Below, one piece after another: positions 3,251-62,955 of a DNA stretch of 64,000 nt; positions within the stretch are counted from its first letter, which is position 1, and the number at the start of each line of letters is the position of its first letter. Source of the stretch: an uncultured virus (IMG/VR IMGVR_UViG_3300002835_000031) (taxonomy: Duplodnaviria > Heunggongvirae > Uroviricota > Caudoviricetes); IMG/VR virus record IMGVR_UViG_3300002835_000031. The stretch is one strand, 5' to 3'. The translations under genes and the position numbers were made by a program. The notes beneath the pieces are model-generated. The model saw nothing but the letters and a program-made list of their open reading frames with translations, made no database searches and was not told the DNA's origin.

Positions 3251-3251
3251 G

Positions 3252-42949: not shown

Positions 42950-44143
42950 TCATCCTAATCCTATACTATGGCTGTATCCAGTAGCTACAGTAAGCCAATT
43001 TGTTAAGGATCCGACCTGGTTTGGCTCACTTCTACCAAAAGTATCTCCAAGACCAAGTTTACCGTTAAAGTTATCTCCCCAAGACCACAATGTACCGTCG
43101 GTTTTAGTTATTATGCACTGAGTGTTCAAAGCTCCAGTCCCAGCATTTGACCAAGTTGTTAATGCACCAACTTGTTTTGGACTAGAATAACTTGTGGTAT
43201 TACCTAAACCCAATTGTCCAGATGATCCTCTACCCCATGTCCACAATGTACCATCAGTTTTAATTGCCGCGCAGCTATTATACATCGCACGAATTTTTGA
43301 CCAATTTGTTAATGCCCCAATTTGTACTGGGCTTGAAAAGTATGTAATATTACTTAGACCTAATTGACCATAACCATTATTTCCCCAGCTCCACATAGTA
43401 CCATCAGTTTTAATAGCAATCGAAAAATTGGATTGTCCCCCGCAACTACCACGTGCCCAAGTTGTTAATGCACCAATCTGTACTGGACTAGATCTATGCG
43501 CAGTATCGCCTAGTCCTAATTTGCCATGATGGTTCGCGCCCCATGACCACATAGTACCATCTGTTTTAATGGCTATGGAGTGATCAACACCGGAGGAAAC
43601 ACTTGACCAATTTGTTAATGCCCCAATTTGTACTGGACTAGATATATTTGTAGTATTACCTAAACCAAGCTGACCTAAGTTATTTTTACCCCACGACCAA
43701 ATAGTACCATCTGTTTTGATGGCCATGCTGCAACCGAAGCCTGAACTAACACGAGACCAAGTGGTTAATGCACCAATCTGCACTGGACTAGATCTATTTG
43801 TAGTATCACCTAAGCCCAATACGCCTTGATAATTTTCACCCCATGCCCATAAGGTGCCGTCGGTTTTAATTGCTTGACTATTTGAGTATCCTGCACCTAC
43901 AACAGACCAATTCAAAGACCCAACTTGTTTTGGACTTGAATAATTTGTCGTATTGCCTATACCTATTTGACCACTGCTACCGCTCCCCCATGAATATATT
44001 TTATATACTACCGGAGGCGCAGGCCAAATGCCTGCTCGTTTTGCCTGCATTTGATCTGCAGGATTAAAAATTCCAGAAGCAGATGAAGTATTAACTACTG
44101 TGGGTGTTGCAGATATTAATCCGCCGTAATACTTTTTAACCAT
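42950..44143 (-). CDS. RCC1-type beta-propeller protein with YYGGLIS...SGIF...WP leader
   Basis: Seven repeats; distinct 45-aa N-terminus. Confidence 0.92.
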   Translation of the reverse strand: MVKKYYGGLISATPTVVNTSSASGIFNPADQMQAKRAGIWPAPPVVYKIYSWGSGSSGQIGIGNTTNYSSPKQVGSLNWSVVGAGYSNSQAIKTDGTLWAWGENYQGVLGLGDTTNRSSPVQIGALTTWSRVSSGFGCSMAIKTDGTIWSWGKNNLGQLGLGNTTNISSPVQIGALTNWSSVSSGVDHSIAIKTDGTMWSWGANHHGKLGLGDTAHRSSPVQIGALTTWARGSCGGQSNFSIAIKTDGTMWSWGNNGYGQLGLSNITYFSSPVQIGALTNWSKIRAMYNSCAAIKTDGTLWTWGRGSSGQLGLGNTTSYSSPKQVGALTTWSNAGTGALNTQCIITKTDGTLWSWGDNFNGKLGLGDTFGRSEPNQVGSLTNWLTVATGYSHSIGLG

Positions 44144-44161
44144 ATTAATTTATATTGTTAT

Positions 44162-45373
44162 TTATTGCTTAGTAGCCAACACGAATCGATGGGAATTTCC
44201 TGCAACAACATCTATCCAGGTAGTCAACGATCCAACTTGATTTGGACTAGTATTATTAAAAATATAGCCTTGTGCCAGGACTCCACCCTGATCACTTCCC
44301 CATGCCCATAATGTACCATTTGTTTTAATTGCGGTGGTGAAATAATTACCTGCAGAAACTTTTAACCAATTAGTTAAAGCTCCAACTTGGTTCCAAACGT
44401 ATGTACTCGAAGTTCCGTTATTTCCCAGTTCTCCATATGAATTCTGGCCAATAGTCCATAATGTACCATCAGTTTTAGTTGCTGCATTGTGGTTGCGGTT
44501 AGCAGCAACCGACGCCCAATTTGTGCCTGAGCCAACTTGTGTTGGCTCAGATCTTTTTACAGTATCCCCAAATCCTAATCTGCCCTGAAAACCACTTCCA
44601 TTAGTCCCCCAGGCATACAACGTACCATCTGTTTTAATTGCAAAACTTGTATTATAACCTGCAGAAATCTTTAGCCAAGTGGTTAGAGCACCAATCTGTT
44701 TTGGACTCGAATATGCTGTAGTATTACCTAAACCCAATTGACCGTCATTAGCAGATCCCCAACTCCACAATGTACCATCGGTTTTAACTGCCAAACAATG
44801 AAATTGAACAACTGAAGTAGTTTTCCAATTGGTTAAAGCGCCAATTTGTTTAGGAGAAGAATAATAAGTACTATTACCTAGACCCAGTACTCCGGCGTTA
44901 TTAGCACCACAACTCCACATCGTGCCATCGGTTTTAACTGCAATAAAGCATTGTAAACCTGCGCTAACACTTTCCCAATTAGCTAATGCACCTACTTGCG
45001 TTGGACTAGAAACTGGTGTGGTATTACCAAGACCCAAACGACCATACCCATTTCTTCCCCAGGCCCAAAATGTTCCGTCAGTTTTAATAGAATATCCTGA
45101 GTGTCCTCCGGCTGCTATAGTTTTCCAATTGGTTAAAGATCCAACTTGTTTAGGTGAGGAATAAAGGTTAGTATTACCTAAGCCAAGGTTACCATATGAA
45201 TTTTGCCCCCAAGACCAAAGATTGTATGGGATAGGAGGTGCTGCAGGCGTAGGCCAATTGCCTGCTCGTTTTGCCTGCATTTGTTGAGTAGGATTGAATA
45301 TTCCAGAAGCGGATGAAGTATTAACTACCGTTTTGGTGGCAGATATTAGTCCTCCATAATACCTTCTTTTCAT
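44162..45373 (-). CDS. RCC1-type beta-propeller protein with YYGGLIS...SGIF...WP leader
   Basis: Seven repeats; N-terminus nearly identical to 42950..44143. Confidence 0.92.
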   Translation of the reverse strand: MKRRYYGGLISATKTVVNTSSASGIFNPTQQMQAKRAGNWPTPAAPPIPYNLWSWGQNSYGNLGLGNTNLYSSPKQVGSLTNWKTIAAGGHSGYSIKTDGTFWAWGRNGYGRLGLGNTTPVSSPTQVGALANWESVSAGLQCFIAVKTDGTMWSCGANNAGVLGLGNSTYYSSPKQIGALTNWKTTSVVQFHCLAVKTDGTLWSWGSANDGQLGLGNTTAYSSPKQIGALTTWLKISAGYNTSFAIKTDGTLYAWGTNGSGFQGRLGFGDTVKRSEPTQVGSGTNWASVAANRNHNAATKTDGTLWTIGQNSYGELGNNGTSSTYVWNQVGALTNWLKVSAGNYFTTAIKTNGTLWAWGSDQGGVLAQGYIFNNTSPNQVGSLTTWIDVVAGNSHRFVLATKQ

Positions 45374-45374
45374 A

Positions 45375-45746
45375 TTAGCTTATATCCTCATAACTGCAAG
45401 TTACGTGAAGAACATTTCCAGTATCTGCAGTTGCCCCTAAACTTGTATTTTCTTCCAAGTAATATTGACTGCTTTTATCTATAACATTTAATGTACTGTT
45501 TCCAGGAACCGTTGTCCGGCCAACAATATTAAATGCATTGCCACTCAAGCTAGCTGCAGAATAATAACTTATTGTTACATTTGCAGACGTTGAAGTGTAA
45601 TTTGAAACGTTCAATACATTTATCTTTAAACATTTGCCAGAACTAGCGGCATTGTTTAGTATAGAAGTTGCAGTTATAGTTGTTAAGTTTGCTCCCGCTG
45701 TTTTACCATTGATTATTGTTGCGCCGATTATGTTTGGTGCTGCCAT
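45375..45746 (-). CDS. small beta-rich fibre-associated adaptor-like protein (MAAPNI type)
   Basis: 123 aa; directly follows the 1787-aa fibre. Confidence 0.7.
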   Translation of the reverse strand: MAAPNIIGATIINGKTAGANLTTITATSILNNAASSGKCLKINVLNVSNYTSTSANVTISYYSAASLSGNAFNIVGRTTVPGNSTLNVIDKSSQYYLEENTSLGATADTGNVLHVTCSYEDIS

Positions 45747-45747
45747 G

Positions 45748-48700
45748 TTATCCTCCGAATATTAATGAATAGCCCACTGCTGCAGCTGCGCTTCCGCCTG
45801 CGCCTCCGCTACCAACAGTAGTCCAACCTGATGAAGTGTATACAACCAACGCGTTTGCGGTTGTGTTATAAACTGTATCGCCTTGTAATGCAGTTGCTAA
45901 AGCATTAGTATTAGAATAATTTGCAAATCTTATTGGCGTTGAAGCCTGTACTCTGCCGGTCGATTGTGGCGATAATAAAATATTACCAGATGTTGATATT
46001 GTTAAATCACCAAATCCATTAATAATTCCTGCAGTATTGCCAGAACTTAATGTTACAACAGATGAATTTGCACCTGTTGCAAGAATAATATTTCCGCCGG
46101 ATGTAATATTAACATTACCCGCGGAGAAAATTGTTCCACCAGCTGCGCCTGTACCATTGGCATAGAATGCGTTTGCTATTACGTTACCGGTGTTAATGTT
46201 GCCGGTATAAGTTATTAGGAACGCGGCAACATTGGCATTGGCAAATTGACTACCTTGTGGGTTTGCTGCAAGATAAGCAATAACATTTGAAACAACTCTT
46301 GCATTTGTATAATATAAGTTACCACTTGAAGCAAGTTCTGCAACATTGGCAGTTGTTAAATTAGCCTGCGTAACTGACCCACCGGCTGATATACCAGTAA
46401 CCGTTCCTCTAAATGTTATCGGACTGTTGACAAAAATGTTACCGCCAGCCAAATTCAAATTACCTGTAGCACTTAACAATAAGTTACTAGATGTCGATAA
46501 TTCTGCAGAGCCTGTACCTGTAGCAATAAATGTATTTGCAATTATGTTTCCGCTTGCAAGAACATTTGAAGCTGTTAAATTAATGGTATTATTTTGAGCA
46601 ATAATGTTCAAATTACCGGTTGAATTTAATGTGCCGGACGTTGCTGAAGGTGAAATAACTGTGTTAGCTATAACATTACCTGCGGAAATATTACCGGTAT
46701 ATGTTGTTAAGAATGCACTCACATTTGCATTACTATAACTTCCGCTTGTAGGATTTGTTAATAGATATGCTGCAACATTGGCATTACCATATGTACCGCC
46801 TTGTGGGTTTGCCGCAAGATAAGCAATAACATTTGAAACAACTCTTGCATTGGTGTAATATAGGTTGTTTAATTCTGTTACATTTGCCGTTGTTAAATTA
46901 GCCTGAGTAACCGATGCACTTGCAATACCCGTAACCGTTCCTCTGAATGTTATAGGGCTATTGACAAAAATGTTACCACCTGCCAAATTTAAATTGCCGG
47001 TCGCGCTTAATAACAAATTGCTTGAAGTTGAAAGTTCTGCGGAACCTGTACCTGTAGCAGTGAATGTGTTAGCAACAATATTGCCAGATGCAAGAACAGT
47101 ATTTGCAGTTAAATTAATTGTGTCACCGGAAACAATGTTCAAATTACCAGTTGAATTTAATGTGCCAGATGTTGCAAACGGTGAAATAACTGTGTTAGCA
47201 ATAACATTGCCAGCATTAATATTGCCGGTATATGTTGTCAGGAATGCGCCGACATTAGCATTACCAAAATTACTTATTATTGGATTTGCCGTTAAATAAG
47301 CAGTAACATTAGATAACACACGAGCATTTGTGTAATATAAATTGCCACTTGCGGCATTTTCATTTACATTTGCAGTGTTTAAATTAGCAGTTAATGCATA
47401 AGATGATAGTACTCCAATAACATTAGAATAAACTCTTGCATTTGTGTAGTATAGATTTGAACCTTCAGCAATACTAGAAGTCGTTAAGGTTAACCCTGTT
47501 AATCCTCCTCTTAATACCAGATTACCATTAACAAAAACATTTGGAGCAGTTAAGTTCAAATTACCGGCTGCACTTAATAATAAATTACTTGTGGATACTA
47601 TTTCACCGGAACCTGCACCTGCTGATATAAATGTATTTGCAACAATGTTGCCTGATACCAATACGTTGGGCGTGGTTAAATTAATTGTACCCACCGCAGT
47701 AATATTTAAATTGCCAGTAGATGTTAGTGTAGCTGATGTTGCCGTAGGAGAAACAAAGCTGTTAGAAATTATATTTCCTGCAGAAAGATTGCCCGTATAT
47801 GTTGTTAAGAATGAAGCAACATTGGCATTACTAAATGATGAAGATGCTGTAGGAGCAGCCCAGAATAAATTGCCTGTGCCATTTGTTTGCAGTATATACC
47901 CGGTCACCCCATCGGTCTTTGGCCATGCTTGCCCATCTAATATAATTCTACCTGTGCCGTTTGCAACCAATTCTATGTTGGAATTTCCGGTAGTTGATAT
48001 AGATAGAACACCCACGTTGTCTATTATGCCGCCGGTTAAAATTAAGTTACCTGCAGCAATGTTACCAGTGTATGTTGGCAATGCCGCTTCAATATTTGAT
48101 AATACTCGAGCATTGGTATAATATAAGTTTGAACCTTCGGCAATGCTTGATGTTGTTAGTGTTAATCCAGTTATTCCGCCTCTTAGTACTAAATTGCCGT
48201 TAACAAAAACATTCGATGATGTTAAGTTAAGATTACCGGCTGCACTTAATAACAAGTTACTTGTGGATGCAACTTCGCCTGAGCCTGCACCGGTCGATAT
48301 AAAATTATTTGCTACAACATTACCTGACACCAATACGTTTGGTGTTGTTAAATTAATTGTTCCGGCCGCAGTAATATTCAAATTACCCGTTGATGTCAAT
48401 GTTGCTGAAGTTGCGGTTGGCGATACAAAACTATTGGCAATTACATTACCGGCACTTAGATTGCCAGTATAAGTTGTTAAGAAAGAACTCACATTGGCAT
48501 TGCCAAAACTAACAGTCGCAGGATTTGCTGCTAAATATGCAATAACATTTGATACTACTCTGGCATTGGTATAATATAAGTTTGAACCTTCAGCAATGTT
48601 TGAAGTAGACAATGCTGATAATGCGCTTATAACATTAGAGTAAACTCTTGCATTCGTGTAGTATAAGTTTGAACCTTCAGCAATGCTTGATGTTGTTAAA

Positions 48701-51111
48701 GTTAAGCCTGACAGAGCACCTCGTAATACTAAATTGCCATTAACAAATACATTTGAAGATGTTAAGTTTAAATTACCAGCTGCGCTTAATAATATATTGC
48801 TTGTGGATGTAAGTTCTGCAGAGCCTGAGCCGGTTGCAATAAATGTATTTGCTACAATATTGCCTGACACCAACACATTGGTTGTTGTTAAATTAATTGC
48901 ACCTGCCGCAGTAATATTCAAATTGCCGGTAGATGTTATTGTTGCCGCTATTGCAGTAGGTGACAGAATTGTATTTGCAATTACATTACCTGCACTAATG
49001 TTACCGGTGTATGTTGTTAGGAATGAAGCAACATTGGCATTGGCAAATGATGATGCAGGTGCTGCCCAAAATAAGTTGCCTGTACCATTTGTTTGTAGTA
49101 CATAACCATTAATGCCATCGGTATGTGGCCATGCCTGCCCATCTAATAAAATTCTGCCATTACCTGCCGCAGATAATTCTATGTTGGAATTTGAAGTGGT
49201 TGCAATTGTCAATACACCAACATTATCTATTATTCCACCTGTCAATATTAAATTACCTGCAGCAAGATTGCCGGTGTATGTTGATAGGAATGATGCAACA
49301 TTGGCGTTACTAAAACTACCACTTACCGGATTTGCCGCAAGGTAAGCAGTAATATTTGATAAAACTCTGGCATTGGTATAGAAAATGCTATTGCCGGATT
49401 CAATTACGTTGGCCGTATATAGATTCAACCAAGTTGTTGCAGAAATATTACCCGCACTAATTAAATTGGCGCCTGTAAACGAACCACCGGAACCACTGCC
49501 TGTTATAATGTTATTGGCAACAATATTGCCCGATGCAATAACATTCGGAGATGTCAAATTAATTGCACCTAACGCAGTAATATTCAAATTACCTGTTGAT
49601 GTTATTGTTGCAGCTATTGCTGTAGGTGAAATAATTGTATTGGCAATAACATTGCCTGCAGTAATATTACCGGTGTATGTTGTTAGAAACGCACCTACAT
49701 TTGCGTTACCATATGTACTAATTGCGGGATTTGCTGCCAAATATGCAATAACATTTGATACTACTCTGGCGTTGGTGTAATATAAATTGTTTAATTCCGC
49801 AACATTGGCTGTGGTTAAATCTACTACATTGGCTTTTAATCTTAAATTAGACTCAACTTGAGCATTAACTCTGGCATTTGTATAGAATAGATTGTTTGTA
49901 CCTTCAGTAATACCATTTGTATTGCCTGAGAATGATGATGCACCTACTCCCGTTAGAGAAGAACCATCACCAAAGAATTTTGTTGCGATTACATTACCAG
50001 ATGCAATAACATTGCCGGAATTTAATGTAATATTTCCAGTGCCCGTGATATTAACATTACCGGTAGAAGATAATGTAGCAGAGCCTGTACCTACTGATAT
50101 AAATGTATTTGCAATTAAATTACCGCTTGCAATAACATTTGTGGAATTGATATTGACTGCACCTGCGGCAGTCATTGTAATGTTTCCAGTAGATGTAATC
50201 AACCCAGCAGATGCGCTTGCTGATATAAATCCATTTGCTATTACATTACCAGTAACATTTAGATTGCCTGTGATATTATTAACATTTACGGAAACGCCAG
50301 TCAAATTAGCAGAGATTTGACCATTAGCAGCGATAATAATGTTATTACCCTGTAATGACGGCATTAATGCTATAACATTGGATGCTACTCTGGCATTTGT
50401 ATAGTATAAATTATTACCTTCAGCAACATTGGCAGTTGTTAAATCAACTACATTGGCCTTGGCAGCCAATAATGATACCACATTGGCAAAAACTCTGGCA
50501 TTGGTAAAATAAAGATTACTTGCAGATTCTGTTACATTTGCAGTAAAAATTCCAGAATAACTATTTGCTGTTAAAGGTCCGTTAACAACAATACTTGATC
50601 CAGTTAAAGTAACGACGCCGGTTGCGGATATTGATACGTTGCCGGTGGATGATAATAATCCAGAGCCTGGGCCGGTTGATATAAAAGTGTTGGCAATAAC
50701 ATTGCCAGTTGCGATAACATTTGTAGAGTTGATATTGACTGCACCCGCAGCAGTCATGGTGATGTTGCCAGAGGATGAAATTAAGCCAGCAGAAGCACTT
50801 GTGGAAACGAAACCATTGGCAATTACATTGCCGCTAACATTCAAGTTGCCAGTAACAGAAGAAACACTTACCGCAGACAGGTTTGCTGAAATAAGACCAT
50901 TTGCTGCAATAGAGATATTATCGCCGGCAACAAGAGCGCCGATTGCCCTGGCGTTACTGAAATATACATTACCAGAACTTGTGTTTCCCGATTCAATAAC
51001 ATTACCGGTAAATATACTTTGGAAGGAAACATTGCCGGTGTTGGCACCCAGCAATTGGCCGTTACTTCCTCCATTTCCACTGATTAAACTTACATCTATT
51101 TTGCGAGCCAT
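45748..51111 (-). CDS. long Asn/Thr/Gly-rich repeat fibre protein (1787 aa)
   Basis: ~13 TANV.E..NLYYTNARV modules; ends AAAAVGYSLIFGG; AATAAATA at 51140-51147. Confidence 0.85.
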   Translation of the reverse strand: MARKIDVSLISGNGGSNGQLLGANTGNVSFQSIFTGNVIESGNTSSGNVYFSNARAIGALVAGDNISIAANGLISANLSAVSVSSVTGNLNVSGNVIANGFVSTSASAGLISSSGNITMTAAGAVNINSTNVIATGNVIANTFISTGPGSGLLSSTGNVSISATGVVTLTGSSIVVNGPLTANSYSGIFTANVTESASNLYFTNARVFANVVSLLAAKANVVDLTTANVAEGNNLYYTNARVASNVIALMPSLQGNNIIIAANGQISANLTGVSVNVNNITGNLNVTGNVIANGFISASASAGLITSTGNITMTAAGAVNINSTNVIASGNLIANTFISVGTGSATLSSTGNVNITGTGNITLNSGNVIASGNVIATKFFGDGSSLTGVGASSFSGNTNGITEGTNNLFYTNARVNAQVESNLRLKANVVDLTTANVAELNNLYYTNARVVSNVIAYLAANPAISTYGNANVGAFLTTYTGNITAGNVIANTIISPTAIAATITSTGNLNITALGAINLTSPNVIASGNIVANNIITGSGSGGSFTGANLISAGNISATTWLNLYTANVIESGNSIFYTNARVLSNITAYLAANPVSGSFSNANVASFLSTYTGNLAAGNLILTGGIIDNVGVLTIATTSNSNIELSAAGNGRILLDGQAWPHTDGINGYVLQTNGTGNLFWAAPASSFANANVASFLTTYTGNISAGNVIANTILSPTAIAATITSTGNLNITAAGAINLTTTNVLVSGNIVANTFIATGSGSAELTSTSNILLSAAGNLNLTSSNVFVNGNLVLRGALSGLTLTTSSIAEGSNLYYTNARVYSNVISALSALSTSNIAEGSNLYYTNARVVSNVIAYLAANPATVSFGNANVSSFLTTYTGNLSAGNVIANSFVSPTATSATLTSTGNLNITAAGTINLTTPNVLVSGNVVANNFISTGAGSGEVASTSNLLLSAAGNLNLTSSNVFVNGNLVLRGGITGLTLTTSSIAEGSNLYYTNARVLSNIEAALPTYTGNIAAGNLILTGGIIDNVGVLSISTTGNSNIELVANGTGRIILDGQAWPKTDGVTGYILQTNGTGNLFWAAPTASSSFSNANVASFLTTYTGNLSAGNIISNSFVSPTATSATLTSTGNLNITAVGTINLTTPNVLVSGNIVANTFISAGAGSGEIVSTSNLLLSAAGNLNLTAPNVFVNGNLVLRGGLTGLTLTTSSIAEGSNLYYTNARVYSNVIGVLSSYALTANLNTANVNENAASGNLYYTNARVLSNVTAYLTANPIISNFGNANVGAFLTTYTGNINAGNVIANTVISPFATSGTLNSTGNLNIVSGDTINLTANTVLASGNIVANTFTATGTGSAELSTSSNLLLSATGNLNLAGGNIFVNSPITFRGTVTGIASASVTQANLTTANVTELNNLYYTNARVVSNVIAYLAANPQGGTYGNANVAAYLLTNPTSGSYSNANVSAFLTTYTGNISAGNVIANTVISPSATSGTLNSTGNLNIIAQNNTINLTASNVLASGNIIANTFIATGTGSAELSTSSNLLLSATGNLNLAGGNIFVNSPITFRGTVTGISAGGSVTQANLTTANVAELASSGNLYYTNARVVSNVIAYLAANPQGSQFANANVAAFLITYTGNINTGNVIANAFYANGTGAAGGTIFSAGNVNITSGGNIILATGANSSVVTLSSGNTAGIINGFGDLTISTSGNILLSPQSTGRVQASTPIRFANYSNTNALATALQGDTVYNTTANALVVYTSSGWTTVGSGGAGGSAAAAVGYSLIFGG

Positions 51112-51164
51112 CTCTTGACCTTTTTATTGTTATCTACTATATTTATTGCCAACGATTATTCTAC

Positions 51165-52157
51165 TTAAAACGTAATGGATCCTGAACTGGTCCATTGATA
51201 TATTCTATATCCGCCGGATACTATTACGTTAGGTGACCCTGTTGTACTTGTTGCTGATGAAAATGTATCTGCATAGCGGATGATTACAGTACCAGAACCT
51301 CCGGAACCAGCTATACCAGTTGTCCATCCTAAACCTCCACCACCACCGCCGGTATTTACGTTGCCAGATGTTGCACTTGCTGTTCCACTAGCCGCCATAA
51401 CGCCTGCACCACCACCTCCGGAACCACCATTTCCAGCAGTAGAGCCACCTTCACCGCCACCGCCACCGCCACCAGCATAATAAGTTGCAGTCCCGGTAAT
51501 AGAACTAACTGCACCAATGCCGCCATTGCCACCTGTTCCCGGAGAAGTACCATTTCCGTTTGCACCGACACCTCCCGCTCCGCCACCGCCACCAGCAACA
51601 TAAATTGTATTAGGACTAGTTCCGCGTGTTCCCGAACCACCATTATTACCTTGTCCTGCAGTACCTGTTCCACCAGCAATAGTTGTAAAAGAAGCAGCAG
51701 AAGAACCACCGCCACCAGAACCGCCATTAGCGCCAACTGAAACATATGCGCCACCACCGCCGCCGCCTATTGCTGTTACCGTAGTAAATCCAGAACCAGA
51801 TATACTTGAGTTAGCACCAGAAGCGGCTCGATTATTTGTTTGAGTTTGTGTTCCTTGTATTCCAACACCACCTGCGCCAACTGTTATTGTGTATGTAACA
51901 CTAACGGCTACGTTTGCCGTATTAGTTAGTAATCCACCTGCTCCGCCGCCGCCTCCGTCTGCTGAACCTCCTGCTCCTCCGCCAGCAACTACTAGATATT
52001 CTACCGTTGAAGTTGGAACAGGTGGCGGGGGCGGTTCTCCTGCAACTAAAATATTAACACTGACTTTTTGTCTTGCAATGGCACGAAAATTGTTCGCAGA
52101 TGCAGAAAACTTTTGTGTAGTACTAACTTTTGCAGCACTATACTTCCGTAAGGTCAT
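51165..52157 (-). CDS. glycine-rich virion/adhesin-like protein
   Basis: VEYLVVAGGG...YYAGGGGG...YRIYQWTSSGSITF; basic leader + PPPPPVP. Confidence 0.85.
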   Translation of the reverse strand: MTLRKYSAAKVSTTQKFSASANNFRAIARQKVSVNILVAGEPPPPPVPTSTVEYLVVAGGGAGGSADGGGGGAGGLLTNTANVAVSVTYTITVGAGGVGIQGTQTQTNNRAASGANSSISGSGFTTVTAIGGGGGGAYVSVGANGGSGGGGSSAASFTTIAGGTGTAGQGNNGGSGTRGTSPNTIYVAGGGGGAGGVGANGNGTSPGTGGNGGIGAVSSITGTATYYAGGGGGGGEGGSTAGNGGSGGGGAGVMAASGTASATSGNVNTGGGGGGLGWTTGIAGSGGSGTVIIRYADTFSSATSTTGSPNVIVSGGYRIYQWTSSGSITF

Positions 52158-53845: not shown

Positions 53846-53860
53846 TTTTTTACTTTTAAT

Positions 53861-54979
53861 TTATGACGAGATTGCAGTTGAATGTCTATATCCTGCAGAA
53901 ACATTCAACCAATTAGTTAAAGCACCAATTTGTACTGGACTAGATCTATTTGTGGTATTACCTTGACCTAATTGACCGTAGCTATTACCGCCCCATGACC
54001 ACAGTGTACCGTCGGTTTTAACTGCCGTAGTATGGAATTGTCCCGCATCAATTTTTGACCAAGTAGTCAATGCTCCAACTTGTACAGGGCTAAATATATC
54101 AGTAGTATTACCTAAACCCAATCGGCCTGTCTCGCCTGAACCCCAAGCCCATAATGTACCATCTGTTTTAATGGCTACATTATGCTGATATGCTGCTTCT
54201 ATAATTGACCAATTGGTCAACGCACCAACTTGTGCTGGACTAGAACCACCGCCCGATCCTCCATCTTGTCCTGCATTGTTTCTACCCCAAGCCCACAATG
54301 TACCATTGGTTTTAATGGCAATCGTATGATGGTCTCCGCTAGTACAGCGCAACCAATTATTTAATGCGCCAACTTGCACAGGACTAGATCTATAAAATGT
54401 ATTGCCCTGGCCCAACTGCCCATAAAAATTATTTCCCCATGACCACAGGGTACCATCGGTTTTTACGGCAAACGACGATGAACCGCCGGTGCCAATACTC
54501 GCCCACGTGGTTAATGCGCCAACTTGTTTGGGACTTGAATATGCTGTAGTATTACCGAAGCCAAGTTGTCCCGAGCCATTGGTTCCCCATGCCCACATGG
54601 TGCCATCTGTTTTTATAGCCAAACTATGCTCGCGGCCGCTGGCCAGACTACTCCAACCGGTTAATGCGCCAACTTGTACTGGACTAGATCTTGCGGTTGT
54701 AGTATTATCCCCCAATTGTCCACTGGCGTTATTACCCCAACTCCATAATGTACCATCTGTTTTTATAGCTGTATTATGATACCCACCGCCAGCAACACTT
54801 AACCAATTACCCAGGGCACCAATTTGCGTGGGGCTCGATCTATTTGTGGTATCTCCCACGCCCAATCTCCCGTGGTAATTTACTCCCCATGACCATAAGT
54901 AAAATTCTGGTGGCGGAGGCAGATCAGGTGTCTCGTATGAAAATGTTCCACCAAATGTTAGATTTTGAAATGTGATCAT
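53861..54979 (-). CDS. RCC1-type beta-propeller protein
   Basis: Seven repeats; MITFQN...PPPP leader. Confidence 0.92.
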   Translation of the reverse strand: MITFQNLTFGGTFSYETPDLPPPPEFYLWSWGVNYHGRLGVGDTTNRSSPTQIGALGNWLSVAGGGYHNTAIKTDGTLWSWGNNASGQLGDNTTTARSSPVQVGALTGWSSLASGREHSLAIKTDGTMWAWGTNGSGQLGFGNTTAYSSPKQVGALTTWASIGTGGSSSFAVKTDGTLWSWGNNFYGQLGQGNTFYRSSPVQVGALNNWLRCTSGDHHTIAIKTNGTLWAWGRNNAGQDGGSGGGSSPAQVGALTNWSIIEAAYQHNVAIKTDGTLWAWGSGETGRLGLGNTTDIFSPVQVGALTTWSKIDAGQFHTTAVKTDGTLWSWGGNSYGQLGQGNTTNRSSPVQIGALTNWLNVSAGYRHSTAISS

Positions 54980-54988: not shown

Positions 54989-55318
54989 TTACTTATTCTC
55001 TGATCCAAATACGCTGAAACTAACATTGGATGTATTTGCAGAAACTGTTACCACATCCGTTGCAGCTAAAGTTATACCAGCAGTAATGCCCAATGATTCA
55101 TTTCCGGCAAGTGAAGTATTGAATGAGAAATAATGTTTGGAAGCCAGGGTCTCGCCAGCGGGTCTTATGGCAATACTAAATGTTGCAGACGAGGTTGAAT
55201 AGTTGCAAACATTTAGAGTAGATATTACTGCACTGGTATCAGAGGGAACCGAATACAATGTGGTATTTGTATTCCCTGCTGGATTTGATTGACCAAGAAC
55301 TTTAAATTGTAAAGCCAT
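54989..55318 (-). CDS. small adaptor-like protein (FKVLGQ type)
   Basis: 109 aa; directly follows the 1582-aa fibre. Confidence 0.75.
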   Translation of the reverse strand: MALQFKVLGQSNPAGNTNTTLYSVPSDTSAVISTLNVCNYSTSSATFSIAIRPAGETLASKHYFSFNTSLAGNESLGITAGITLAATDVVTVSANTSNVSFSVFGSENK

Positions 55319-55328
55319 ATTTTTATTC

Positions 55329-58300
55329 TCACAATCCTGCTAATAAGAACGGATTAAACGTCTGTGTTGTTATTGCCTCATTACCGAAGAATTTAACTTC
55401 AATTGTAGAGTTTGGTGATGGAGTGGGAATCAATGTTAATATTGTTCCTGATACTGTGTAGTCCGTAGTAGGAATCTGAACCAATCCGTCTATGGTAACA
55501 ATGATACGTCTTGCTAACGATACAGAAGTGCCCAATGTTATATTTGCATTACCACCTGCGAATGTTTGACTATCTGTAATAGCATGTACGCCACCGCTGA
55601 TTAAACCATTGGCTGCAAGAGTTATACCTTCACCTGCGGTCAACGCAGATACCACACGGGCATTTGTGAAATATAAGTTACTACCAACTTCTGCAACATT
55701 GGCAGTTGTCAGCCCAACAATAGCTGTTGCGAATACTGTTGCACTTACGTTGGCTGAAATTCTACCGTTCGCTTCAATTGTAATATTGTTTCCAGCCAAT
55801 GTTGGTAACAATGCAATAACATTAGAGTAAACTCTGGTGTTTGTGTAATATAAATTATTTGTGCCTTCAGTAATACCATTTGTATTACCTGTAAATGATG
55901 ATGCACCTACACCCGTTAAAGATGAACCATCACCAAAGAATTTTGTTGCAGTTACATTGCCAGTTGCTACAATATTGCTTGAATTTAAATTAATATTGGC
56001 CGCAGTTATGCTAACATTGCTTGCTGCATTGATATTAAAATTACTGGTAGACGTTATCGAACCTGTACCTGTAGCAGTTGATATGAATGTATTAGAATAT
56101 ACGTTGCCCGTTAATATAATATTTCCACCAGAAACAATATTAAAGTCACCGGTTGCCGTTAATGTACCTGTACCGGTTGCTGCAGCAATAAAGCTATTGG
56201 CAATAACGTTGCCTGCATTAATGTTACCGGTATATGTTGTTAGGAATGCACCTACATTTGCGTTACCATATGTGCTAATTACTGGATTGGCCGCAAGATA
56301 CGCAATAACATTAGATACCACGCGAGCATTTGAGTAATATAAATTGCCGCCAAATTCATTTACGTTGGCTGTGTTTAAGCCTGTAACCGAACTTGCGTTC
56401 AATGTCGTTGTAGATGAAATCTGACCATTTCCGCTGATTGATATACCAGAACCTGCGGACAATGCAGAAACAACTCTTGCATTTGTAAAATATAAATTAC
56501 CGCTTGTTTCAATAACATTAGCAGTATATAAACCAACCCAGTTTACAGCTGTAATGGTATTTGTGCTAATTAGGTTAGCCTCCGTAATAGAGCCACCTGT
56601 TCCGCCACCTACAATAGTGTTCGCAAAAATAACGCTAGCAGAAATATTATTTGCGCTAATTAAATTAGCACCCGTAATAGAACCGCCTAAGCCTTGGCCT
56701 GCAATAATCGCATTAGCATTAATATTGCCCGCATTAATATTGCCGGTATACGTTGTTAGGAATGCACCTACATTGGCATTACCAAATGTTCCGCCCTGTG
56801 GATTTGCTGCAAGATATGCCGTAACATTTGATAATACTCTGGCATTTGTGTAATATAAATTACTATTTGATTCGGATACGTTAGCAGTGGTCAAGCCAAC
56901 AATGGATAAAACATTTACTGTTGCACTAGCTGTAGCAGAAATTCTACCATTTGCGGCAATTGTAATATTATCGCCGGCCAAGGATGGTAAGAATCCTATA
57001 ACATTTGATTGAACTCTTGCATTTGTAAAATATAAATTACCACTTGTTTCAATTACGTTGGCTGTGTATAAACCAATCCAATTTACTGAAGAAATGTTAT
57101 TTGTGCTGATCAAATTAGCACCAGTAACAGAACCTCCAGAGCCACCACCAATAATGGTGTTTGCAGTAATAACACTTGCAGAAATATTATTTGCGCTAAT
57201 TAAATTAGCACCAGTAATAGAACCACCTAAACCAGTTCCCGAAATAATCGCATTAGCAATTACATTGCCTGCACTAATGTTACCAGTATATGTTGTTAGG
57301 AAAGCCCCAACATTGGCATTGCCATAAGTACTAATTACCGGATTTGCTGCAAGGTAAGCGGTAACATTTGACAATACTCTGGCATTTGAATAATATAAAT
57401 TGCCACCAAATTCATTTACGTTGGCTGTGTTTAAGCCTGTAACAGAACTTGCGTTTACTGTTGCTGTAGATGATATTTGGCCGTTTGCAGATAATGAAAT
57501 ACCTGAGCCTGCGGACAATGCAGAAACAACTCTGGCATTTGTAAAATATAAATTACCACTGGTTTCAATAACATTCGCAGTATATAAATTGTGCCATGTT
57601 GTTGATGAAATTCTTCCCGCAGTAACATTTCCAGTTGTTACGATATTGTTTGAATTTAAATTAATGTTACTTGCTGTTATATTAACATTGCCGGCAGCAT
57701 TAATATTAAAGTCGGATGTTGATGCAATTGATCCAGAGCCTGTTGCGGTAGATATAAATGTATTGGCAAAAACATTACCTGTTAATCTAATGTTGCCGCC
57801 GGAAACAATATTAAAATCGCCAGTGGCGTTTAATGTACCTGTACCTGGTGCAGTAGATATAAAACTATTTGCAATTACATTACCAGCACTAATATTACCG
57901 GTATACGTTGTTAGGAAAGCGCTCACATTAGCTGTGCCAAATGTGCCAACTTGCGGATTTGCTTCAAGATATGCAGTAACATTCGATAACACACGAGCAT
58001 TTGTATAATATAAATTGCTATTTGATTCTGATACGTTAGCTGTGTTCAAACCTACAACTGAACTTGCGTTTACTGTTGTTGTGGATGAAATTTGTCCGTT
58101 ACCGCTAATTGCAATACCGGAACCAGCTGACAATGCAGAAACAACTCTGGCATTTGTAAAATACAAATTACCACTGGTTTCAATTACATTTGCTGTGTAT
58201 AGTCCAAGCCAATTTACAGATGAAATATTATTTGTACTAATTAGGTTAGCACCTGTAAACGAACCGCCTGTTCCTGAACCAGTAATAATTGTGTTAGCAA

Positions 58301-60077
58301 TTACATTACCAGCACTAATGTTACCTGTATATGCAGATAACAGTGCAATAACATTAGCATATACTCTTGCGTTTGTATAATATAAATTGCCTGCAACTTC
58401 TGTTACGTTTGCAGTAGATAAATTGTTAACAGTTGTTTCAATTGTTGCTGTTACATTTGCCGTTGCACGAATCGTACCTGTAGCCGGGTCATAGATAATT
58501 GTAGAGTCGCCAGCGCTTAATGCCGCTCTTGCAAGAGCATTACTAAAATACTTGTTAGTGCCTTCGGTTAAATTACTTGTGGTGAAGTTGCTTAATGTTG
58601 ATACTGTACCTTGTACATTACCAAATAATGTGGTAGCCGATAAATTTGCCAATCTAAATGACGCGTGCGCAGTATTGATAAAGATGTTTGCATCGGGTGC
58701 AGGATCGTAGTTATCAAATACTTTAAATGTTCCGTCGGTTGCATCTCTAAAGAAACCGGCATTATGATATACGCCATCGTTATAGTTAAATGCAATACCT
58801 AGATCCGGATTTGCAGATGGTGAACCATTGTTCAAATAAATCATATTGTCCGATATGGACAAATTATTTGAGCTGTGAGTTGTTACATTACCGTAAAAAT
58901 TTACAGGCCCGGTAACATTTAATCCACCAAATGTAACATTTGAAGATGTGGATACATTTTGACCAATTGAAATACCGCCGGTTGTGTTATCATATGATAC
59001 GCCAGTATCGCCAGATAATGCAGATCTTACACGAGAATTTGTATAATAAAGATTGTTTAGTTCTGTAACATTGGCAGTTGTAATATTTGCTGTTAAAGGA
59101 CCGTTAATAACAACGCCATCACTACCGCTTAAAGTAACAATGCCGATCGCAGATACTGTTACGTTGCCAGTAGATGATATTAATCCTGAGCCTGGACCGG
59201 TTGATACAAAATTATTTGCAATTACATTGCCGCTAACATTCAAATTACCAACAACACTATTAACAGCTACCGCTAATAAATTAGCAGAAATTCTACCATT
59301 TGCAGCAATAATAATATTATCGCCGGCTAATGTGGGTAACAACGCAATAACATTAGATGCTACTCTTGCATTGGTATAATATAAATTGTTTAATTCTACA
59401 ACATTTGCAGTAGTAAGGTCCGTAACATTTGCTTTAAGATTTAATAGCGGAGTAACATTAGATACTACTCTTGCATTGGTGTAATATAAATTGTTTAATT
59501 CTACAACATTTGCGGTTGTTAAATCTGTAACATTTGCTTTAAGATTTAATAGCGGAGTAACATTCGCCAATACTCTTGCATTGGTAAAGTATAAATTTGT
59601 ACCTTCTGCTAAATCAGCAGTTGTAAAATTACTTAATGTTAAAACAGTATTTGCAACATTAGCAGTTAATGCAATATTTGCAAAATTAGCATTTGCAGCA
59701 AAAAATGCAGTATTAGCAACAAGCGAACTTTGAACTATTCCCAATATGGTATTGGCTACATTCGATAATTCGGTGGACGAAACAGTAATTATATTAGGAA
59801 CCCAATTTGTTCCGTCCCATATTAAACCATATCCAAGACCAGGGGCAAGCGTTACAGTATCTACATCTGCTAACGCATTAATACTTATTGCTGATAAATT
59901 TGCCGTAGGTAAAATCCAAGCTCGGTTACCATCTACATTCGCAGTTAATACATAACCATTGGCAGCAGGCAAGCCTAAGTCTGGTTCAGTTTCCTCTAGA
60001 CGTATAAATTCATAACGACTAGCGCTTACATTGGCGCTAGGTGTCTTTTTTACTCTACCCGATATTAGTTTAGTCAT
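55329..60077 (-). CDS. long Asn/Thr/Gly-rich repeat fibre protein (1582 aa)
   Basis: ~16 NLY(Y/F)(T/S)NAR modules; C-terminal IVTIDGLVQIPTTDYTVSG domain; ends FNPFLLAGL. Confidence 0.85.
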   Translation of the reverse strand: MTKLISGRVKKTPSANVSASRYEFIRLEETEPDLGLPAANGYVLTANVDGNRAWILPTANLSAISINALADVDTVTLAPGLGYGLIWDGTNWVPNIITVSSTELSNVANTILGIVQSSLVANTAFFAANANFANIALTANVANTVLTLSNFTTADLAEGTNLYFTNARVLANVTPLLNLKANVTDLTTANVVELNNLYYTNARVVSNVTPLLNLKANVTDLTTANVVELNNLYYTNARVASNVIALLPTLAGDNIIIAANGRISANLLAVAVNSVVGNLNVSGNVIANNFVSTGPGSGLISSTGNVTVSAIGIVTLSGSDGVVINGPLTANITTANVTELNNLYYTNSRVRSALSGDTGVSYDNTTGGISIGQNVSTSSNVTFGGLNVTGPVNFYGNVTTHSSNNLSISDNMIYLNNGSPSANPDLGIAFNYNDGVYHNAGFFRDATDGTFKVFDNYDPAPDANIFINTAHASFRLANLSATTLFGNVQGTVSTLSNFTTSNLTEGTNKYFSNALARAALSAGDSTIIYDPATGTIRATANVTATIETTVNNLSTANVTEVAGNLYYTNARVYANVIALLSAYTGNISAGNVIANTIITGSGTGGSFTGANLISTNNISSVNWLGLYTANVIETSGNLYFTNARVVSALSAGSGIAISGNGQISSTTTVNASSVVGLNTANVSESNSNLYYTNARVLSNVTAYLEANPQVGTFGTANVSAFLTTYTGNISAGNVIANSFISTAPGTGTLNATGDFNIVSGGNIRLTGNVFANTFISTATGSGSIASTSDFNINAAGNVNITASNINLNSNNIVTTGNVTAGRISSTTWHNLYTANVIETSGNLYFTNARVVSALSAGSGISLSANGQISSTATVNASSVTGLNTANVNEFGGNLYYSNARVLSNVTAYLAANPVISTYGNANVGAFLTTYTGNISAGNVIANAIISGTGLGGSITGANLISANNISASVITANTIIGGGSGGSVTGANLISTNNISSVNWIGLYTANVIETSGNLYFTNARVQSNVIGFLPSLAGDNITIAANGRISATASATVNVLSIVGLTTANVSESNSNLYYTNARVLSNVTAYLAANPQGGTFGNANVGAFLTTYTGNINAGNINANAIIAGQGLGGSITGANLISANNISASVIFANTIVGGGTGGSITEANLISTNTITAVNWVGLYTANVIETSGNLYFTNARVVSALSAGSGISISGNGQISSTTTLNASSVTGLNTANVNEFGGNLYYSNARVVSNVIAYLAANPVISTYGNANVGAFLTTYTGNINAGNVIANSFIAAATGTGTLTATGDFNIVSGGNIILTGNVYSNTFISTATGTGSITSTSNFNINAASNVSITAANINLNSSNIVATGNVTATKFFGDGSSLTGVGASSFTGNTNGITEGTNNLYYTNTRVYSNVIALLPTLAGNNITIEANGRISANVSATVFATAIVGLTTANVAEVGSNLYFTNARVVSALTAGEGITLAANGLISGGVHAITDSQTFAGGNANITLGTSVSLARRIIVTIDGLVQIPTTDYTVSGTILTLIPTPSPNSTIEVKFFGNEAITTQTFNPFLLAGL

Positions 60078-60405
60078 TTGCTGTTTCTAATAAACTCATA
60101 ACTAATTTTAGTGCGGTGTTTGCACTGGCAAAAGCTACCACCTTTTGTCCCGTCTCTAATACAAGCTTACCTGTTAAAACACTTGCAGAATCCTTTGTGG
60201 GAATCTCAAAATCTTTGGCCAATTCAATTTGTTGATTTGTTGCCGTACTATGTAATAGAGTAGTTGATACCGTATTATTACTCACATTAGTTACTTGCAA
60301 AGATAAGATAATAGATGTTTTTAACGCAGGTGCGGTATAAATTACATTAGATTGTGTTGTAAGATTTGATGTTATTGTTTTAAATACGTTTAATGCTGTT
60401 GCCAT
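60070..60405 (-). CDS. small adaptor-like virion protein (LNVFKT type)
   Basis: 111 aa; IYTAP...SIILSLQVTN...GKLVLETG; follows the 848-aa protein. Confidence 0.75.
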   Translation of the reverse strand: MATALNVFKTITSNLTTQSNVIYTAPALKTSIILSLQVTNVSNNTVSTTLLHSTATNQQIELAKDFEIPTKDSASVLTGKLVLETGQKVVAFASANTALKLVMSLLETAND

Positions 60406-60408
60406 TTA

Positions 60409-62955
60409 TTATCCTTCGATTGCTAGTATATACGGTGTCATAACTGCAAACAATGCCTTATTGAATGTTCTACCTGTAATTGTGCCGTCAACTCTATTTA
60501 TAACCAATCCTGTACCAATTCTAAAATCGCCAAGCTGGTCGGTACTAGTAAAGTATACTTTTCCTCCGCGCAATTCGGTAACTTCATTTTCCTGTATTGG
60601 TACGCCACCTAAATAGGGCAAAGCGGTTGCAATAGTAGTGCCGGAACCAACATATTCAAATGTGTGTCCGCTGGATGAAATATAACTTCCTTGATGGAAA
60701 GAAACTGTAGAATTGGCCAACAAAGACTCATTAACTACTTCTAAAAATGTAACTGTACTAGTGTTGCCAATTAATTCAGTTGCACCGCTAACGGTATAGA
60801 ATGTGCCAGCACCATTACTAATATTTGCCCAGTTTTGATTTACAAATCCTATCACTTCAGCAGTAATAAATTCTCGATTAGCTAAAACTAATTTTGTAGC
60901 ATTAATAATGTTGGTATTAGAACTAGGAGTAAATGTTATTGGAGTTTTTGCAGGTGCAGCATTGGGTCCTAGTGTGACAATATTTGCAATTAATGCCACA
61001 TCAGCTAATAATAGATTTGCTTCAGCCGACGTTGCGTATGATGCTGCTGTGGTATTTTGAGTTATAGCTGTTTGATAAACATTAGCAATTACGTTGCCTC
61101 TTACAATTTTATCAACAAGATTTCCAATAAAATAATATGCTGCTCCTGTTTGAACGACTTGATCATTAATTTGTGTATCAGTTGCGTCATATTGATAATA
61201 ATAAGTACCAGCAATAACAGATTGTTTATTGCCAGTATGTCGCAAATCAAACGTAACACTTTCTAGAATATACCCAACATCTCTGGAACACGTTGAAACT
61301 GCATTGGCATAATCTATAAAATTGGTGTTTGCCCAATATCCAGGATATGTGGAATCAATATATCCAATGACTTCAGCTGCTATAAATGCCTTATTTGCAA
61401 TGATTAAATTTGCAGCATTGTTTACATTTACATTTGTATTTGCAGGATACTGATTGGGTACAATTGTGTCTGTAACGCCAGCTGTACCATTTTGAATAAT
61501 GTTTGTAACCACATTAAAATTATTTTGTATTATTGTACTTTCAACTGCCGTGCCGCCTGTGCCATTTGAGGGTGATACATTTGACTGATACACTTGGCTA
61601 ACAGTAGTACCTTGTGCAAATTGAACTGCAATTTGTGCCGCAACATTAATTCCATTTAATGTTTCAGGAGTTTGATTTGGTATAGCGGAAGTAGGTTGTG
61701 ACCAATATTGTAATCCTGCAAATGTTGATTGAGTATTACTATTATATCCCAAATCAATTGCCAAAGAATCAACAATTAATCTAGTATCTCTTGCACATTT
61801 TGTTTGATTATAATTTGCAAATATTGCAGCATCACCATAATTTGGTTTAATTGGTAAATTATAAATCACTACACTATTAGTTGCTTCTACAGTTGCATTT
61901 GCTACTTTTCCAAAATATAAAGGTTCGCTTACTCCGTCTGCCCACAAACCATAATTACCAAAAGCCGCATTAGAATTTGTAACTGAGCAAAATCCACCAT
62001 TTTCACATTTAATTGCAATGCTACAACAAATTGTGAATACAGATACCAACTGAGTATACCCTCTATTTAGCATATGAATGCCGATGCCGCCTTCATTCGT
62101 TTGTGTGTACGCATCACACACCATAGAACGCAATCCGGTAACATACCTACCATCTACACGCATACCTGTACCGGTAGTTGTAATAGAAGAACAATTCTGT
62201 ATATATGGACTGGTTACAATAGTACCAGCAGATCCATTTGGATTATATGAGAATGCGGCCGCAGGCGATACGTGGTCTCTGAATGTAATACCTGTTACAT
62301 AAGAAGCATTCTCAACATAGAACATATCAACCGATGGTTGCGTTGGTCTAATTGTAGTTGTTCTTAGATTATCCCCTACTAATGCAACACGTCTAGGTAT
62401 TGTTACTGGTTGATTGTGTAGTCTGTAATCTCCGCTTCTTAAGAATACGGTTGTCCACTCTGTGGCCGCAGCCAATGCCACGTGGATATTGGCAAATGCG
62501 TTACCCGTTGTTTTGCCATCATTTGCATCGTTACCATTTTGTGCAACGTATAATACGTTAGAATTAAATCTTGAAACTAATGCTCTTAATTCCGCAACAG
62601 TTGGTTGAATTGCGGCCTCAACTCTTGCATTTGTGTAATATAAATTACTTGCAGATTCTTGCACATTAGCAGTTGTTAAATCTGTAACATTTGCTTTTGC
62701 GTTTAATAAACTAATTACATTAGCATAAACTTTTGCATTTGTAAAATATTGATTAGTGCCTTCTGCAAGATTTGATGTTGTTTGATTTGATAAACTGCTT
62801 ACAGTACCAGTTACATTACCAACAAGTGAACCATTGACAGTTAAATTGCCAAAGATACCATTATAGGTTACATTTATATTGTTTGCGGTCAGGTAATCTA
62901 CGCCATAGACGTTACCTGAAACTCTTAACCCTGATTTTACTCTAAAATCTTGCAT
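60409..62955 (-). CDS. virion protein with pectin-lyase-like beta-helix interrupted by two C.RD...DL repeats
   Basis: VLYVAQNGNDANDG...VGDNLRTTTIRP...SPYIQNCS; KCARDTRLIVDSLAIDL / CSRDVGYILESVTFDL; HTFEYVGSG. Confidence 0.8.
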   Translation of the reverse strand: MQDFRVKSGLRVSGNVYGVDYLTANNINVTYNGIFGNLTVNGSLVGNVTGTVSSLSNQTTSNLAEGTNQYFTNAKVYANVISLLNAKANVTDLTTANVQESASNLYYTNARVEAAIQPTVAELRALVSRFNSNVLYVAQNGNDANDGKTTGNAFANIHVALAAATEWTTVFLRSGDYRLHNQPVTIPRRVALVGDNLRTTTIRPTQPSVDMFYVENASYVTGITFRDHVSPAAAFSYNPNGSAGTIVTSPYIQNCSSITTTGTGMRVDGRYVTGLRSMVCDAYTQTNEGGIGIHMLNRGYTQLVSVFTICCSIAIKCENGGFCSVTNSNAAFGNYGLWADGVSEPLYFGKVANATVEATNSVVIYNLPIKPNYGDAAIFANYNQTKCARDTRLIVDSLAIDLGYNSNTQSTFAGLQYWSQPTSAIPNQTPETLNGINVAAQIAVQFAQGTTVSQVYQSNVSPSNGTGGTAVESTIIQNNFNVVTNIIQNGTAGVTDTIVPNQYPANTNVNVNNAANLIIANKAFIAAEVIGYIDSTYPGYWANTNFIDYANAVSTCSRDVGYILESVTFDLRHTGNKQSVIAGTYYYQYDATDTQINDQVVQTGAAYYFIGNLVDKIVRGNVIANVYQTAITQNTTAASYATSAEANLLLADVALIANIVTLGPNAAPAKTPITFTPSSNTNIINATKLVLANREFITAEVIGFVNQNWANISNGAGTFYTVSGATELIGNTSTVTFLEVVNESLLANSTVSFHQGSYISSSGHTFEYVGSGTTIATALPYLGGVPIQENEVTELRGGKVYFTSTDQLGDFRIGTGLVINRVDGTITGRTFNKALFAVMTPYILAIEG

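Follow-up and report, generated by a model that had tools for sequence, protein, structure and literature searches.

The appendage genes described here lie in a 64,000-nucleotide stretch (the window) of the uncultured virus IMGVR_UViG_3300002835_000031 (Caudoviricetes), which corresponds to positions 62001-126000 of a 127,885-base contig. Based on the open reading frames of the whole contig, whose gene identities outside the window were judged from their sequence, we take the virus to be a T4-like phage; the nearest primase of a cultured phage is that of Methylophilales phage Melnitz (43%). At 42950-62955, all on the minus strand, Pfam and PHROG matches identify the long genes as fibers and the genes after them as RCC1 propellers and glycine-rich proteins. 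Four small genes, whose products we call adaptors, are placed among them. In transcription order, the first half comprises a fiber of 848 residues (F848), a 111-residue adaptor, a fiber of 1582 residues (F1582), a 109-residue adaptor (named 54989 after its lower coordinate, as are the other small genes), a 372-residue RCC1 propeller and a 319-residue glycine-rich protein. The second half comprises a 119-residue protein, another 109-residue adaptor (52157), a 330-residue glycine-rich protein, a fiber of 1787 residues (F1787), a 123-residue adaptor and two RCC1 propellers.

Adaptors were divided, from their own sequence alone, into classes A (MAAPN), B (YKVLGQ), C (MATALNVF) and D (MATTTK). The original prediction described each long protein of this region as ending in a short hydrophobic tail and being followed at once by a small gene; gene order, tails, sizes and leaders (the starts of the next proteins) were all found as described. 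F848 (60409-62955), a proximal fiber assigned by alignment and by PHROG tail-fiber families (phrog_17885, E 2e-82), has a conserved C-terminal domain and the class C tail LFAVMTPYILAIEG (60409-60453); a class C adaptor comes next at 44 of the 45 junctions matching this tail pattern. After a gap of 3 nt follows the class C adaptor (60070-60405; MATALNVFKT start; phrog_1276), a putative fiber-to-fiber joint. Its gene overlaps by 8 nt that of F1582 (55329-60077; phrog_697), a distal fiber with 16 [LK]Y[YF][TS]N shaft repeats, and the anticipated succession of an LNVFKT adaptor and an MTKLISGRVK fiber is borne out by the class C leader of about 55 residues recognized there by alignment (59913-60077; MTKLISGRVKK..RYEF..EPDLG..W). 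F1582 ends in the class B tail FNPFLLAGL (55329-55358; class B adaptor next at 56 of 58 matching junctions), 10 nt from the class B adaptor 54989 (54989-55318; MALQFKVLGQ start). The leader on the next gene is non-cognate: the RCC1 propeller (53861-54979; Pfam RCC1) and the glycine-rich protein behind it (52886-53845; PF21722) start with a leader type that ends in prolines (MITFQNLTFGG..PPPP in the propeller).

The second class B adaptor (52157-52486; MAITYKVLGQ start) follows the 119-residue gene and not a fiber; this exception and the non-cognate leader after 54989 were both omitted from the original prediction. The 119-residue protein (52496-52855; phrog_7759) is conserved, accompanies tip genes and is a weak candidate for a tip chaperone; its match to the Pam3 fiber chaperone (7ypx_a) reached only E 0.93 and was lost with a profile. 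The stop of adaptor 52157 overlaps the start codon of the 330-residue glycine-rich tip (51165-52157; MTLRKYS start; PF21722, E 2e-22). The proposed succession of a YKVLGQ adaptor and an MTLRKYS glycine-rich protein is seen at 52157 and not at 54989, and the MTLRKYS start is lineage-specific. F1787 (45748-51111), recognized from its sequence and PHROG matches, has 10 shaft repeats and no adaptor upstream. Its class A tail, AVGYSLIFGG (45748-45780), precedes a class A adaptor at 29 of 29 matching junctions, and 1 nt separates F1787 from the class A adaptor (45375-45746; MAAPNI start), which was assigned by family and class profiles. The two RCC1 propellers after it (44162-45373, 403 residues, with the leader in its first 41 or so residues; 42950-44143, 397 residues; both Pfam RCC1) each carry a YYGGLIS..SGIF..WP class A leader, as had been noted for the MAAPNI adaptor.

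The four small genes form one family. All of their products match a single iterated profile (E 1e-29 to 1e-39), adaptor class profiles match one another with HH probabilities of 89 and 96, and 52157 and 54989, already suspected to be paralogs, are 57% identical. At E ≤ 0.001, PHROG 1276 (function unknown) is matched by three of the four window adaptors, 45375 being the non-match, and by 25 of 39 adaptors, and the N-terminus of PHROG 693 (tail fiber) by nine of the 39; both are unannotated sequence families, and class A adaptors lie mostly outside them. A scan with 54989 yielded two identical copies, a partial match over 33 residues and nothing else. The family as a whole is abundant: 7989 of 7998 scored candidates were relatives, and about 980 and about 2200 IMG/VR stretches were estimated for two of the classes. 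The literature searched, which left most subscription papers and bioRxiv supplements outside its coverage, gave no account of the family. The label 'OpcA' that JGI attaches to some relatives was discarded, as neither Pfam nor NCBIfam supports it.

The adaptor fold is predicted to be a jelly roll. An AlphaFold2 model of 52157 built from 121 sequences (pLDDT 95.2, pTM 0.86) is an eight-stranded beta sandwich of this kind. At E ≤ 0.001 it matched 105 BFVD entries, almost all of them uncharacterized phage proteins, with a few labelled virion proteins and two tail-fiber-like proteins, of S-CAM1 and P-SSM2. Several relatives are labelled virion proteins in GenBank and UniProt; class C relatives occur in S-SKS1 and S-SCSM1, and the S-SCSM1 copy is named 'virion protein' in GenBank. 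No solved homologue was found in the PDB by sequence, profile or Foldseek: the sequence search with 60070 gave nothing under E 0.25, the family profile had 0 matches, a profile of the tail domain gave nothing under E 0.15, and Foldseek with the 52157 model gave nothing at E ≤ 0.001. A xylanase chain found in the PDB sequence search with 52157 (E 0.004) was unconvincing, the ESM Atlas gave nothing beyond unnamed viral clusters, and a single-sequence model of the adaptor-tip fusion of locus L169 (pLDDT 38.6) was discarded. The best matches in the VIA fold search (Z 8-10) are general jelly rolls, namely nucleoplasmin (Z 10.1, rmsd 2.4, 92 aligned), the trimeric capsid cement protein of KHP40 (Z 9.9, rmsd 2.8, 102 aligned) and the HFTV1 turret protein (Z 9.2, rmsd 2.7, 94 aligned); Pam3 gp24 was not among the 50 matches listed.

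To compare classes across phages, six IMG/VR scans and ten cultured-phage regions were combined into 407 loci with 362 distinct adaptor contexts, copies of the source phage included. Adaptors clustered at 90% identity gave 242 clusters, of which seven unassigned ones were dropped, and of the remaining 235 those with a usable neighbor were 215 for tails (the last 14 residues upstream) and 221 for leaders (residues 2-25 downstream). The tail predicted the adaptor class in 197 of 215 clusters; leaving out adaptors with 70% identity or more reduced this to 188 of 215. With homologous bodies left out too, the tail was predictive for class A (32/35) and class B (87/93), and for 22 of 43 class D clusters, 19 of which were called B; classes B and D have a common tail type. 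The corresponding result for class C, 0 of 44, arises because nearly all class C bodies are homologous. Under both exclusions the leader predicted the class in 183 of 221 clusters (A 33/35, B 69/96, C 45/45, D 36/45), and shuffled class labels gave a mean of about 0.33 and a maximum of 0.45. In a held-out set of new GTDB and metagenome loci, in which 53 of 94 adaptors were non-redundant and less than 90% identical to the training set, tails were correct in 41 of 45 cases and leaders in 48 of 52. The supposition that adaptor and leader classes co-vary in other genomes is thus confirmed, weakly for class B, and the covariation extends to the upstream tail, beyond the adaptor-leader pairing first proposed. 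That each adaptor class has a leader class of its own stands for A and C, and for the fourth class, D; it does not stand for B, which has no real leader motif.

The same association was seen at the level of single gene junctions. Of 3198 unique junctions in the 407 loci, 132 match strict tail patterns, which were drawn from the same data; the next gene is an adaptor of the matching class at 129 of these, no adaptor follows at three, and at none does an adaptor of another class follow. Among the 3066 non-matching junctions, 2907 have no adaptor after them, the patterns having missed 159 adaptors. The tail-adaptor association exceeds chance. Direct upstream tails were found for 31 of 36 class A and 39 of 45 class C adaptors.

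Natural exchanges also involve matched parts. Among 45 distinct fibers with a class C leader, four have B tails followed by B adaptors and three have A tails followed by A adaptors; the other 38 have either no adaptor (36, including three for which no next gene was found) or an adaptor without a tail (2). Conserved tail residues are encoded by several synonymous codons, so the conservation is at the protein level; in classes A, B and D it fades within about 6-13 residues going upstream. A DNA-level cause of the conserved tails, such as a promoter or an RNA, was rejected because synonymous codons vary in the tails, Rfam gave 0 matches, and sigma-70-like sites and TATAAATA occur at chance. For adaptor pairs under 70% identical, tails were more similar than a neighboring control peptide in class A (24.3 vs 3.3), B (14.9 vs 1.7) and D (11.5 vs 5.9), with 36.6 vs 33.5 in class C. 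The mean pairwise similarity of leaders against their controls was 18.0 vs 3.4 in class A, 32.5 vs -2.7 in C, 15.9 vs 4.3 in D and 1.0 vs 0.0 in B. Proteins with the class A leader have bodies of six Pfam types with unrelated folds; in 33 proteins the body is glycine-rich (23), RCC1 (2), LamG (3), fn3 (2), Lcl_C (1), DUF5122 (1) or without a match (1).

These data bear on two other explanations. According to one, tail, adaptor and leader make no direct contact and are simply co-inherited as a block of DNA, the adaptor being a decoration or cement protein attached to some other part of the virion. The three elements are indeed adjacent, class-level events are few, and a trimeric capsid cement and a turret protein are among the nearest folds, yet linkage alone fails to explain the sharp-edged conservation at the protein level, tails without an adaptor are nearly absent (3 of 132), and the leader is lost in fusions (described below); we regard this explanation as very improbable. 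According to the other, binding is one-sided: the adaptor is permanently paired with the downstream gene, the two being in effect a tip protein in two pieces, and the tail is an all-purpose plug or trimerization end that fits several sockets. Such an arrangement would agree with the common tail type of B and D, with the frequent second adaptors that lack a tail, with the higher frequency of adaptor-tip than of fiber-adaptor fusions, and with similar hydrophobic ends before other gene types in loci L206, L403 and L165. It is nevertheless unlikely, since the tails of A, B/D and C are each specific to their class and, behind homologous fibers, a change of tail goes with a change of adaptor.

The three hydrophobic tails just mentioned, ..AIAFAIAL (L206:15096-16329), ..DIALGM (L403:9399-11483) and ..LAILGASN (L165:3-7997), precede proteins starting MKKLLHYYEF, MARKAILDTYY and MAISDSQK, respectively, in place of this adaptor; these genes may represent further socket families.

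In several loci the elements are fused. The counterpart of 54989 in L169 is joined to a glycine-rich tip via a short linker and no leader is visible, and L089 is similar. Fibers of L173, L174 and L045 have an adaptor-like domain near the C-terminus (E 1e-5 to 1e-9; a pairwise HH check for L174 was weak, with a probability of 14) and no tail. Among 48 long class A matches, ten consist of adaptor and body (LamG, glycine-rich or S74-chaperone fiber) with no leader discernible by eye, two of fiber and adaptor without a tail, 13 are split by an insertion of about 230 residues, 13 have about 100 extra residues, five keep the leader behind a QEV..M linker, two look chimeric or frameshifted, and three were not scored by the profile. 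Tail-less fiber-adaptor fusions among the long matches are P0122, P0123 and P0169, and one of three long class C matches is of this kind. In P0128 the adaptor forms the N-terminal part of a protein that also has an S74 chaperone domain, a domain typical of trimeric fibers. That the leader or the tail is missing from fusions agrees with a bridging role of the adaptor, and insertions of about 230 residues are as expected of an exposed structural part.

Side features of these proteins were also recorded. In P0127-P0155, class A adaptors carry either a repeat-rich insertion of about 230 residues or a YYVCQ.H domain of about 100 residues, similar to one in the gene at window position 62985. The fused fibers (L173/L174:8335-9426, L174:11238-13880, L045:1-522 and 2388-4124) end in the adaptor-like domain plus ..YY[ST]IE, and each is followed by a glycine-rich gene with a MATIFPKNF or MPLTPSKF start. 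This arrangement is a fused version of the proposed joint.

The fusions also speak to the idea that the adaptor serves in assembly as a chaperone of the kind of Tfa, T4 gp38 or Pam3 gp25, which shields the hydrophobic fiber end and is then released, leaving tail and leader to bind directly. The adaptor stands directly after fiber genes, as such chaperones do in the available portions of two accounts (PMC9608196, PMC9603124), and direct tail-leader contact would also yield three-way covariation. Against this, the adaptor is found fused to tips and fibers and interrupted by inserted domains, and relatives are labelled virion proteins; no chaperone family had a match among the 39 adaptors, and the separate gene 52496 is itself a weak chaperone candidate. 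Such a role is therefore quite unlikely.

Comparison with described systems places the adaptors close to two of them. In the T4 long tail fiber, as presented in the accessible text of PMC9603124, gp34, gp35, gp36 and gp37 are encoded consecutively, a separate connector joins a trimer C-terminus to the next N-terminus, and gp35 is a 372-residue monomer present once. The class C adaptor gene resembles gp35 in standing between two fiber genes, F848 and F1582; in contrast to gp35 and gp36 (372 and 221 residues), the adaptors are 100-125 residues long and come in several classes per genome. The T4 hinge is a monomeric joint with 3:1:3 stoichiometry. hhalign of the adaptor against single-sequence templates of T4 gp35, gp36 and gp38 gave probabilities of 0.15, 0.31 and 0.08. 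For the Klebsiella phages KP32, K11 and KP34, the part of PMC13352976 that is available describes a conserved N-terminal peptide that docks a second receptor-binding protein on a cognate domain and thereby enables swaps. Adaptor classes A, C and D likewise have a conserved N-terminal peptide before exchangeable domains, as in KP32- and CBA120-type systems, and class B has it weakly. In KP32 a gp10-like domain of the first fiber serves as socket; here the socket would be a separate gene that comes in several classes, and the upstream fiber carries another matched motif. The gp9/10 family had no match among 39 adaptors. By analogy, the adaptors may work like T4 gp35 or the KP32 pair of branching domain and peptide, while belonging to neither family.

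Other systems are more distant. As far as the available parts of PMC9608196 and PMC9942802 describe them, gp38 of S16 and T2 sits directly on gp37 as its cap, and Pam3 gp24, with gp25 as its chaperone, consists of one chain. These systems have in common with ours a glycine-rich tip on a trimeric fiber and a small companion gene; they differ in that an adaptor gene here stands between the fiber and tip genes. A PDB sequence search with an adaptor-tip fusion found neither S16/T2 gp38 nor Pam3 gp24, and the tips carry PF21722. In the Ena1 and Ena3A appendages of Bacillus endospores, the N-terminus of the tip protein L-BclA is proposed, in the text seen of PMC11362473, to dock into a jelly roll of about 110 residues, and Ena subunits polymerize into disulfide-linked rings (PMC11362473). 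The adaptor is a predicted jelly roll of similar size: Ena3A was its top Foldseek match (E 1.4e-3), and Ena1 aligned with Z 8.6 (rmsd 2.8, 94 aligned). Scores of the 52157 model against Ena chains (Z 8.2-8.6) are near the level of a common arrangement, and the DUF3992 profile matched 0 of 39 adaptors. The papers on P-SCSP1u and A1002 were set aside as precedents, as the structures described in their available parts differ from the adaptor joint.

The three-part pattern is also present in cultured phages S-SKS1 (a C-then-A chain as here), S-SCSM1, Bellamy, HTVC033P, DSL-LC04 and phiPsal1, with S-CBWM1 as the exception. Relatives of the class A adaptor occur in S-SKS1, Bellamy, HTVC033P and DSL-LC04, and the cultured phages with the pattern span myo-, podo- and siphoviruses. 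A class A set of tail, adaptor and leader was also noticed in the closed chromosome of Hyphomicrobium sp. 1Nfss2.1 (L415, 5423-7172), apparently in a prophage-like region.

Taken together, we consider it probable that the small proteins are virion connectors that bridge the tail of the upstream fiber and the leader of the downstream protein. The original idea, that adaptors cap a fiber end and bring in the next module by way of a cognate leader, is thereby supported in part. One side of an adaptor would bind the hydrophobic fiber tail and the other side the leader of the next module, and three adaptors would sit on the three tails of a trimeric fiber. Class C would join F848 to F1582; class B would cap F1582 and carry the glycine-rich tip 51165, probably via 52157 or a mixture of 54989 and 52157; class A would cap F1787 and take either or both RCC1 propellers. 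We infer from this two chains, F848-C-F1582-B-Gly330 and F1787-A-RCC1. Shafts and tips would be exchanged independently of each other by recombination in the conserved tail-adaptor-leader block, and surplus genes with a leader would provide alternative or mixed tips. Matching is not strictly one-to-one, as second adaptors without a tail and additional genes with a leader occur commonly. Leader-bearing genes outnumber adaptors in 15 of 138 class A loci, as they do here; 126 of 130 class A leader genes share a locus with a class A adaptor, the loci being largely adaptor-selected; and 44 loci hold two adaptor classes. Given extra leader genes, tail-less adaptors and two-class loci, tails and adaptors are likely shared among modules. 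More tentatively, and with a somewhat lower than even chance in our judgment, the family may constitute two-sided peptide sockets that are orthogonal to one another and act as an address code common to unrelated myo-, podo- and siphoviruses of aquatic bacteria. Such a code would set the order of fiber segments and load mixed tips onto one trimeric end. Several leader-bearing genes would then compete for one adaptor, and several adaptors would share one tail. In some phages (L105:3381-15359, L048, L087 and L403) four or more stub-adaptor-tip triplets follow one another, the shortest stubs having 66-160 residues, with recurring starts MATQLQFRRGT, MSFPT.P.NG and MTTK...

Several observations weigh against a two-sided connector. 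In the tree of adaptors the classes are clades, with 3 label changes, so the shuffles overstate significance and independent events are few; since tail, adaptor and leader are also adjacent DNA, linkage explains part of the signal. The class C tail is inseparable from its homologous body. Of the 53 adaptors in the held-out set, 52 belong to class A, and two of the successes are sulfotransferase-like genes (L409, L413) scored correct by default. A direct upstream tail was found for only 80 of 105 class B and 24 of 49 class D adaptors. The class B leader is barely a motif, its loose M[AGST][IVLFY][KRSTNQ] start being found in 74 of 96 cases against 324 of 1717 in the background and 25 of 45 in class D. 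In the window itself, a cognate leader is missing after 54989 and a tail is missing before 52157. Five long matches keep the leader; from the intergenic sequence of HTVC033P, they are probably gene-calling artefacts in which TAG was read as Gln across a ribosome-binding site. The leader profile missed these five, which is why leader absence in the other ten was judged by eye, and several fusions come from single contigs. For S-SCSM1, 45 virion proteins are reported in the available text of PMC9602691; no gene-level mass-spectrometry data were seen for any adaptor, and part 1 of 7 of the S-SCSM1 supplement, together with a term search, gave no proteomics table.

The neighborhood of the chains has further features. 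The gene before F848 (window 62985-63956, continuing to 65804; 939 residues) has a weak T4 gp9/10 C-terminal-like end (PF23618, E 0.002; phrog_677), and the F848 start, MQDFRVKSGL, resembles MANDKKFVVKNGL starts in other loci; by sequence, this end and this start are a possible further socket/leader pair. Just upstream of F1787, AATAAATA lies at window 51141-51148 on the minus strand. It is a near match to TATAAATA, the T4 late promoter consensus, and may start a separate transcription unit at F1787. About a dozen RCC1 and glycine-rich genes (window 10930-12975, 25070-25969, 27309-37399 and 52886-54979) carry the other leader, hydrophobic strands ending in a proline run, with no adjoining adaptor; L089 and L092 contain long arrays of similar genes. 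Flanking the appendage genes (window 37874-42909 and 26457-27248) are two sulfotransferases, a methyltransferase, a DUF6445 gene and an APS-kinase-like gene, which may modify the fibers. A homologue of the 585-residue sulfotransferase directly follows a class A adaptor in L409 and L413.

In conclusion, the adaptors represent a real, widespread and apparently undescribed variant of modular fiber joints. The claim is directly testable, because the parts are small and have cultured carriers (S-SKS1, S-SCSM1, HTVC033P and phiPsal1). If it is true, orthogonal peptide-socket pairs could serve as protein-assembly tools, and fiber architecture would be readable from sequence via tail and leader motifs. 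A very common unannotated phage protein would gain a function, and the reshuffling of host-binding modules by aquatic phages across unrelated virion types would be explained.

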